Source: Shigella phage sb3. Taken from it: 64,000 bases of DNA. The stretch lies in sequence record PQ666541. The stretch is one strand, 5' to 3'. The notes below the pieces were generated by a model. That model was not told the origin of the DNA. It saw only the letters and a list, made by a program, of their open reading frames with translations, and made no database searches. Every line of letters begins with the position of its first letter. Within the stretch, counting starts at the first letter, position 1. Positions 30,241 through 32,298 of this stretch are shown here, in pieces. The position numbers were made by a program, and so were the translations under genes.

Positions 30241-32298
30241 TTATCCTTGAACGAACTTGTAAGGCATGTTTGTAATATCTATGCAAGACGCAATAATTCC
30301 AAGAGATGATTCTACTTTCTGTTTAACATTTGATGAAACAAATGATGCAAAGTCAACTCTGTCTTCTATTTCAATATCACCTGTCATTGCAACTACTTCA
30401 CCAGTTTCCATTAGACGGTCACCGTCATAAATGACTGATTCGGTGAGTTCTTCCGTAGTCATAACTTCAGCTTGAATGAGTTTTGTATTAGTTTTAGTTG
30501 TTCCATCATTATTAGAAGCATCAGTTATTTTATTGACTTTGACCATCAATCCGCGTGGTAGAATAACTTCAGCTTCTGTTGAAGGCGCTAAACTTCCTCC
30601 TGGATATACAACATTAACTTTATGAGCTCCATCAATTGCCCATCCTATTTGAACTAAATTATCGTTTGGATTAATAATTCCTTCTTCATTTTTATCGATA
30701 GAACTGTTAAGACGCTTTTCGTCTGGTAAAAGACCAATACCAGCATGCGTAATCCAAGTACCAAAAATGATAGGAGTTAAAGAAGTAGATACAAAATTTC
30801 TGAAATAGAACACTTTATTTTTAACTAGTGCTTCGTATATAGGAGGTAACATACTTTGAGCACGATAAACTGTAATGCCTTCTGGTATACGATCACCATT
30901 TTCAAAAGCTGAGTCTAAGTTATTTATAGCAGATTCAATTTCTGGTGCTGTTAAAATACTTTTTCACTCATCTGGATTGTAGCGGCCTAAAAGAAGATTA
31001 TTGATGTCAGTATATCCTGATCCACAGTACTCTCTAATGCCGCGCTTTTGCGATGGAGTATATTTAGATGAATCTTTATTTTCGACTATAGAATGCAATG
31101 ACCATCCAATGGTAATATCATATCCACGCAATTCTCTTTGAGGAATCTTAGTTTTTGCTGCGTTCCAGGAATTTTGTAGTTATTTCTTCCCAGCATCTTC
31201 CTTTAAATGCGAATGGTTGTTATTATGTTTATCAAGCCAATTATCTTTATATTCTTCAAAAGTATGATTAACTATAGAAGCAATAGTTTCTAAACATTTT
31301 ATTGAAGTAGTCGGTTCTTTTCGTAATCTTTCTAAAGCTTTAATCTTTATTTCTTCATTAACCTCAGATTCTTTTTGAAAAGAATTTATAGAAGTTCATC
31401 TGAGTTCCATTTCAGCAATAATAGTTTTAGAAGCATTCTCTAATGCAAATCCTGAAGTAGAATTAACAGTTATTTCTTCTGCTTCGGGAATTAAAGGAGC
31501 GGTAGCAGGTTTATTGAAATTAGCTGCAGTAGATTCATACTTCTGGAATAATTCACTTTCAAATCTAGAAGATTCCAATGACTGACTTTGTGCAATTGCT
31601 CTACGGGAAATTTTAACTTTAACGATTACCGCTTGGTCAGAACGTTTATCATTTTCTTGCGCAATAGATGCAGCAATTGCCTCATTTTTAGTTACTTGAG
31701 CTCCAGTATCTTTATTGATATAAACATCACCGACCTTCGATTCAACTTTAGTAAAGAGCTCGGTACTAATTTCAGGAACTCCTGGGATGTCTTCTAATGA
31801 TACATTTTTGCGATGTATAAGAATATATGCATACTTTTTATCGTAATCCCAGAGTTCCTTAAGAAGGACGTATCTGCCACCTGAACGACTGCGGATAAGT
31901 CTATCAGCAATAAGTTGAATTTGACGAGCTTGACCAGCAGTTTTAGACTTAAGAATACGGAGCATACAGGCATCAATTTTATACTGACGCATCGTTTGCA
32001 TTGCAACTGTAAAAACTGAATTGATATAATTAATTGGGCTTGGACCGAGACCTTTTAATTTAGCAATTGAACCTTTAGCAGTTAATGTAAAAGGAACAAT
32101 ATGCATCATTTTATCGCCCATTTTTAAATCGCGATTAGTATCACCTCCAGATGTATAGGTACACAAACGAAAGCCTGGTTGTTCAATTGCGTCATCAACA
32201 TGAACTGAAAAAATTTGCGGTATTTTCTTCTTTGGATTTAAGTTTGTAATCGGAAGAGTAGTATCTTCGTCAAATAATTCTGTAATGAGTTCCATCAT
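30241..32298 (-). pseudogene. Second alt-like paralogue: one 686-codon frame interrupted by three in-frame stop codons
   Basis: Single frame from ATG 32298 to final stop 30241 with TGA 31396-31398, TAA 31180-31182, TGA 30964-30966; N-terminal 300 aa about 65 percent identical to alt; C-terminal part keeps the ART motifs. Confidence 0.75.

Follow-up and report, generated by a model that had tools for sequence, protein, structure and literature searches.

The window, the whole 64,000 nt stretch of Shigella phage sb3 DNA analysed here, is a segment of a Tequatrovirus (T4-like) genome, sharing approximately 96% identity with Shigella phages sb2, pSs-1 and KNP5 as well as with numerous E. coli phages. 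Relatives including sb2, pSs-1 and KNP5 carry two intact alt genes at the locus considered here. The features at this locus in the window are as follows.

28180..30237, minus strand: intact Alt-like paralogue, 685 aa
30241..32298, minus strand: interrupted alt, by position the orthologue of T4 alt, adjoining the alt.1-like ORF and the ligase gene and matching PF03496
31396-31398, minus strand: stop 1, TGA, codon 301
31180-31182, minus strand: stop 2, TAA, codon 373
30964-30966, minus strand: stop 3, TGA, codon 445
32348-32536: alt.1-like ORF, neighbour of the interrupted alt, as in T4
32533-33993: DNA ligase gene 30, near the interrupted alt, as in T4

Translation of 30241-32298 gave a single Alt-family frame of 685 codons and a terminal TAA, broken by TGA, TAA and TGA at a stop-to-stop distance of exactly 216 nt, twice, just as the original prediction had described. 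The codon numbers listed above and a length of 2058 nt, also taken from that prediction, hold when counting is from the first ATG. Relatives are annotated from the second ATG, at 32295, which is probably the true start; the gene is then 2055 nt long and the stops fall at codons 300, 372 and 444. The neighbouring gene at 28180-30237 was confirmed to be intact, and differs from its pSs-1 counterpart by 37 nt and 5 aa.

The ADP-ribosyltransferase (ART) motifs said to be conserved in the interrupted gene are indeed there, as YR, FVSTSL and EAEVILPRG (R, S-T-S and E-x-E). With the stops masked, Pfam PF03496 (ADP-ribosyltransferase exoenzyme) matches aa 374-614 with E=3.4e-34 and a score of 118 bits, compared with 73 bits for the paralogue, where the match lies at aa 416-620 and the ART domain is more divergent. 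Stop 1 precedes the catalytic domain, stop 2 falls at its start and stop 3 lies within it. As written, the longest products would be an N-terminal fragment of 299/300 aa, which lacks the ART domain, and, from a C-terminal ORF, 203 aa without the catalytic Arg. The uninterrupted full-length ORF expected of a packaged Alt is broken by the three in-frame stops. The N-terminus, MELITELF..., is identical to that of T4 Alt, where it is the capsid-targeting and prohead-protease cleavage sequence and has a role in packaging.

T4 has the gene order 54, alt.-3, alt.-2, alt.-1, alt, alt.1, 30, and the interrupted gene sits correspondingly between the gene 54 side and alt.1 with gene 30. As its neighbours are the alt.1-like ORF and the ligase gene, the interrupted gene is the orthologue of canonical T4 alt, and the intact gene next to it is the paralogue lost from T4. 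At 123065-123450 T4 has only alt.-1 and alt.-2, described in its record as remnants of a duplicated alt, where the window phage and most relatives keep the full 685-aa paralogue. The interrupted gene was thus mislabelled when it was described as the second alt-like copy of an old paralogue pair. Nor are the two copies about 65% identical: protein identity is 40% overall, and DNA identity is approximately 69% over the first ~700 nt only. Alt enters the host with the phage DNA and ADP-ribosylates host RNA polymerase (PMC10468400).

At the three stop positions sb2 has the sense codons GAA, TTA and CGT, and none of the relatives compared shares the stops. Alt genes of relatives fall into two allele families. 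The S type (T4, sb2, pSs-1, AR1, SH7 and U115) encodes 682-686 aa, and the K type (KMB23, P922, ESh16 and KRT47; approximately 350 Tequatrovirus records) encodes 697 aa. Both ends of the interrupted gene are S-type, with approximately 99% identity to sb2 and pSs-1 and no indels at gene nt 1-700 and 1830-2058. Its centre is a mosaic.

30470..31600, minus strand: mosaic block of alt, gene nt ~700-1830, S-type length throughout

Across this block there are 18-24 mismatches to sb2 per 100 nt, a uniform identity of approximately 80%, and again no indels. Of its 1130 sites, 717 are shared by the two allele types and 383 are specific to one parent (215 S-only and 168 K-only), leaving 30 that are private to the window. 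The block changes between S and K 64 times in 1.13 kb, in tracts of 6-50 nt. The choice of parent follows local alignability: of the isolated S/K differences 89% carry the K base in the window, of those in dense clusters 91% carry the S base, and each of the eight S/K indels is of S length. A blended stretch that reads ASKTIIAE in frame corresponds to K-type sequence minus 12 nt, an in-frame deletion. The closest phage record to the centre has approximately 81% DNA identity (among 779 matching phage records), and the closest protein approximately 73% (among 5.8 billion proteins). A novel divergent alt allele was considered and rejected, as hardly a base departs from both the S and the K type. 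The possibility that the block had been mutated at random in silico was likewise rejected on codon-position bias, its mismatches being distributed 65:45:108 over the three positions.

All three stops lie in strings that match K-type alt displaced from its normal register. Stop 1, whose T and G are K-only bases, lies inside AGATGAACTTC, which corresponds to K-type GCA GAT GAA CTT C at an offset of -4 nt. Stop 2 lies inside GGAAGAAATAACTA, corresponding to K-type TGG GAA GAA ATA ACT A at an offset of +10 nt; one S-type C after this string brings the frame back. Stop 3 lies inside TGAGTGAAAAAG, corresponding to K-type A TGA GTG AAA AAG at an offset of +23 nt, which in the K frame reads ATG AGT GAA AAA G. 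The match for stop 3 is statistically the weakest of the three, and the alternative would be three substitutions in S-type GAGCGTACAAG. The stop-bearing K strings are exact over 11-20 nt, and none of the offsets is divisible by 3. The absence of frameshifts noted originally therefore holds against the S-type allele, but not against the K type. Examples of chimeric junctions, with slashes at the joins, are TTTTCAAAAAG/AATCTGA and GAAATAACTA/C/AAAAT, and GTT TAA ATT in gene 34. Judged from these strings, the stops are most likely by-products of K-type sequence placed on an S scaffold without the K indels, and hence misframed. A natural pseudogene would not be expected to look like this: the stop contexts are exact strings from another living allele family, the private sites are still biased towards third positions, and the stops are shared with no relative compared.

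Natural S and K alleles also appear to have modest nucleotide similarity in different reading frames at nt ~890-950 (window ~31350-31410). There, pSs-1 (S) has CAGAGAAGCTTC/TATAATTCCTGAAGATAAAG and KMB23/P922 (K) have CAGATGAACTTC...TATAAATTCTTTTCAAAAAG, with ~65-85% identity over 12-20 nt. This similarity suggests that compensated frameshifts may be among the causes of Alt linker divergence between the two types.

The equal spacing of the stops had been put forward as a possible sign of deliberate or selective inactivation. This idea found no support: the interrupted gene has no tandem repeat of any period, including 216 nt, and damage of a similar kind affects a further six genes in the window, among them the essential gene 34. 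By our own calculation (1.5/N), equal spacing is expected in approximately 0.4% of cases for three random stops in the divergent block of 373 codons, and the spacing was spotted post hoc. The stops lie where they do because of the locations of the S/K indels, and we regard the 216-nt spacing as a coincidence set by where those indels fall.

When the pSs-1 coding sequences were mapped on the window, 7 of 82 were found to be broken, all of them in locally divergent blocks.

30241..32298, minus strand: alt, three in-frame stops
35095-35553, minus strand: small gene
35546-35761, minus strand: small gene
45555-46733, minus strand: nrdB, ribonucleotide reductase small subunit, TAG at 46203-46205 (codon 177)
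51254-51498, minus strand: small gene, 1-nt deletion at ~51402
51806-52186, minus strand: small gene
55879-59748, plus strand: gene 34, long tail fibre proximal subunit, essential, TAA at 56329-56331 (codon 151)

Around the TAG in nrdB, S and K bases are interleaved nucleotide by nucleotide. The gene keeps the S length of 1179 nt, compared with 1170 nt in K. Among 586 records, none exceeds 91% identity to this block. The TAA in gene 34 is a chimeric codon, with T from a pSs-1-type TTA and A from a P922-type AAA. It lies in a 10-nt pSs-1-type patch, and the surrounding 521 nt are 98.3% P922-type. A plaque-forming phage could not carry this stop. The four small genes, which have internal stops or the 1-nt deletion, sit in blocks that are 13-19% divergent from pSs-1 and contain many private sites. 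Another fragmented alt is present in the databases, in Escherichia phage BYEP02 (OR757454.1), where the gene is annotated as three coding sequences of 306, 732 and 681 nt.

Over its whole length the window aligns to pSs-1 in a single alignment of 64,004 columns, with 2236 mismatches (3.5%) and 5 gap openings. This amounts to 447 mismatches per gap opening, compared with 145 for the window against sb2, and with values of 35-96 when the window is paired with KMB23 or when pSs-1, sb2 and KMB23 are paired with one another. Within alt, sb2 is slightly nearer to the window than pSs-1 is. The last 2305 nt (61696-64000), in the hypervariable gene 37 for the distal tail fibre, are 100% identical to pSs-1, as are some other stretches that have no alignment to KMB23. 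Identity in gene 37 fits filling-in from a scaffold, and recent exchange of the adhesin gene could account for it too. KMB23 leaves most of this gene 37 stretch unaligned, and sb2 differs from the window there. Another perfect match to pSs-1 extends over 901 nt and includes an ORF at 5961-6611 (plus strand), flanked by the genes for tail sheath and tail tube. This ORF is shared at 100% identity with pSs-1 (gp180), has no counterpart in KMB23 and is possibly a mobile insertion. Differences private to the window are distributed 109:64:641 over the codon positions of the window as a whole, and this was a further ground for rejecting random in-silico mutation. Since the private sites are so strongly biased towards third positions, the non-scaffold information must be real phage sequence and not random noise.

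We consider it likely, with good confidence, that the window is a column-wise computational blend on a pSs-1/sb2-like scaffold and does not faithfully reproduce any single phage genome. The scaffold would resemble Shigella phage pSs-1 or sb2, and bases of one or more other Tequatroviruses would have overwritten it where the alignment was clean. Where the alleles were too divergent or differed in length, the sequence and length of the scaffold would have been retained. Within alt, the S scaffold and the incoming K allele differ by eight indels between the N-terminal part and the ART domain, and K strings written on S coordinates minus these indels would be read in the wrong frame, generating TGA, TAA and TGA. 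Candidate processes are reference-guided or mixed-population consensus calling, over-polishing, or a comparable blending of sequences. From the mosaic, the offsets, the dependence on local divergence, the states of the indels, the broken genes and the shortage of gaps, we infer a computational rather than a biological cause, and a pipeline of this general type. Mixing of strains in a De Bruijn graph was considered separately and is unlikely, as neighbouring bases within a single codon derive from different parents, which needs column-wise blending. Sequence error was one of three possibilities raised originally, beside a pseudogene and an inactivated paralogue; it is the best supported of them, although its cause would be more specific than point errors, namely a blend of two alleles. 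The phage itself most likely has an intact alt gene, and this gene is probably K-type, encoding 697 aa.

It is a weakness of this reading that crude simulations reproduced the outcome only in part. K reads mapped on an S reference, with the majority base taken and indels ignored, and with iterative consensus included, gave partial hybrids that reached at most 65% of variant sites. These read-mapping simulations yielded one spurious stop and did not regenerate the three stops of the window. Projection through a global alignment explains only approximately 78% of the non-S bases. The five small indels relative to pSs-1 mean that the window is not a pure substitution-only consensus.

A biological origin of the mosaic can also be envisaged. 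Co-infection by a pSs-1-like and a K-type phage, followed by patchy heteroduplex repair across alt, might have yielded a genuine but dead recombinant, in which isolated mismatches were resolved to K, loops and clustered mismatches to S, and K strings were thrown out of frame by the S/K indels. T-even phages recombine at high rates, and the private sites look naturally evolved. The similarity between S and K in shifted frames near stop 1 means that an in-register crossover could create nonsense codons. Loss of alt would on this proposal be tolerated because the phage can do without the gene and has an intact Alt-like paralogue next to it, and the remnants alt.-1 and alt.-2 of the other paralogue in T4 show that one copy of the pair can decay. 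The recombinant would, however, require approximately 64 switches in 1.13 kb, with tracts down to 6 nt, in heteroduplex across ~35% divergence, and resolution of eight out of eight indels to S. Breakage of nrdB, and of the essential gene 34 through a chimeric codon, is incompatible with a viable phage, and no second example was found among the phage records, proteins, IMG/VR and JGI metagenomes searched. We therefore regard a dead recombinant as improbable. Slightly less probable still is a mosaic that is real and reflects ultra-short-patch natural recombination between alt alleles that differ by compensated frameshifts before the ART domain. Hybrids of such alleles would automatically be laden with nonsense codons, a built-in "hybrid incompatibility" between alleles of an injected host-takeover enzyme, tolerated because the paralogue would serve as a backup.

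More doubtful again is a real third alt allele, S-like in variable and K-like in conserved segments, in which only the three stops are point errors or recent mutations. The bias of the private alt sites towards third positions, at 5:4:25, the intact ART motifs and the in-frame ASKTIIAE stretch are all consistent with such an allele. The stops, however, are not isolated substitutions but parts of exact K strings read out of the K frame; no such allele was found among the 779 phage records, IMG/VR or the 5.8 billion proteins; and the blending of nrdB and gene 34 would be left unexplained. Deliberate engineering, or programmed read-through or recoding of regularly spaced stops, is hardly credible. 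The exact 216-nt spacing is the one observation in its favour, and it is set against stop contexts that are natural K-type strings with no inserted cassettes, a gene without repeat or periodicity, and relatives with sense codons at these positions. TGA, TAA and TAG all occur in frame within the broken genes, yet they also terminate normal genes of the window, which argues against recoding here, and because of which stop-codon reassignment or a suppressor was rejected as well.

None of the window's alt ORFs, even that of the intact paralogue, had an exact protein match in public assemblies. The alt junction strings, with the stop codon wild-carded, were absent from IMG/VR. One junction string was searched for in JGI metagenomes, where the sole 23-mer match was a chance one, in unrelated DNA.

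The pattern of three stops is real in the sequence as given, but probably reflects a problem of sequence quality rather than biology. With at least seven genes that contain blend-induced stops or frameshifts, the window serves as a quality flag; it is unsuited to mining for pseudogenes, recoding or new alleles before the source reads have been checked. A real mosaic would be evidence of ultra-short-patch recombination between T-even alleles, and of the loss of canonical Alt with retention of the paralogue, which would be of moderate interest to T4 specialists.

Comparison with known systems places the interrupted gene closest to T4 Alt (gp alt, NP_049811; UniProt P12726), the packaged mono-ADP-ribosyltransferase, with which it shares its genomic position. 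It is near-identical to T4 and pSs-1 Alt in the first ~245 and the last ~80 aa, and has the ART motifs in common with them; it differs in the blended central 1.1 kb and in the three in-frame stops. The alt.-1 and alt.-2 remnants of T4 are a precedent for the decay of one member of the alt pair in a real phage, by way of a stop codon combined with a new start. There, however, the decayed copy is the other paralogue, cut to approximately 130 codons, whereas canonical alt of the window is full length and its stops can be traced to allele blending. K-type alt is the source of the 168 allele-specific K bases in the centre of the gene, including the stop-bearing strings. Its insertions of 8, 5, 3, 3 and 33 nt are all missing from the window, whereas the S-specific insertions are kept, and the K strings therefore fall out of frame. 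Chimeras that arise in reference-guided or mixed-strain consensus calling are a known class of assembly artefact. The window resembles them in keeping the length of the scaffold, in adopting isolated variants and reverting to scaffold at dense or indel variants, and in its chimeric codons, few gaps and hypervariable genes identical to the scaffold. It differs from them in its five small indels and in that simple simulations missed its exact sequence.
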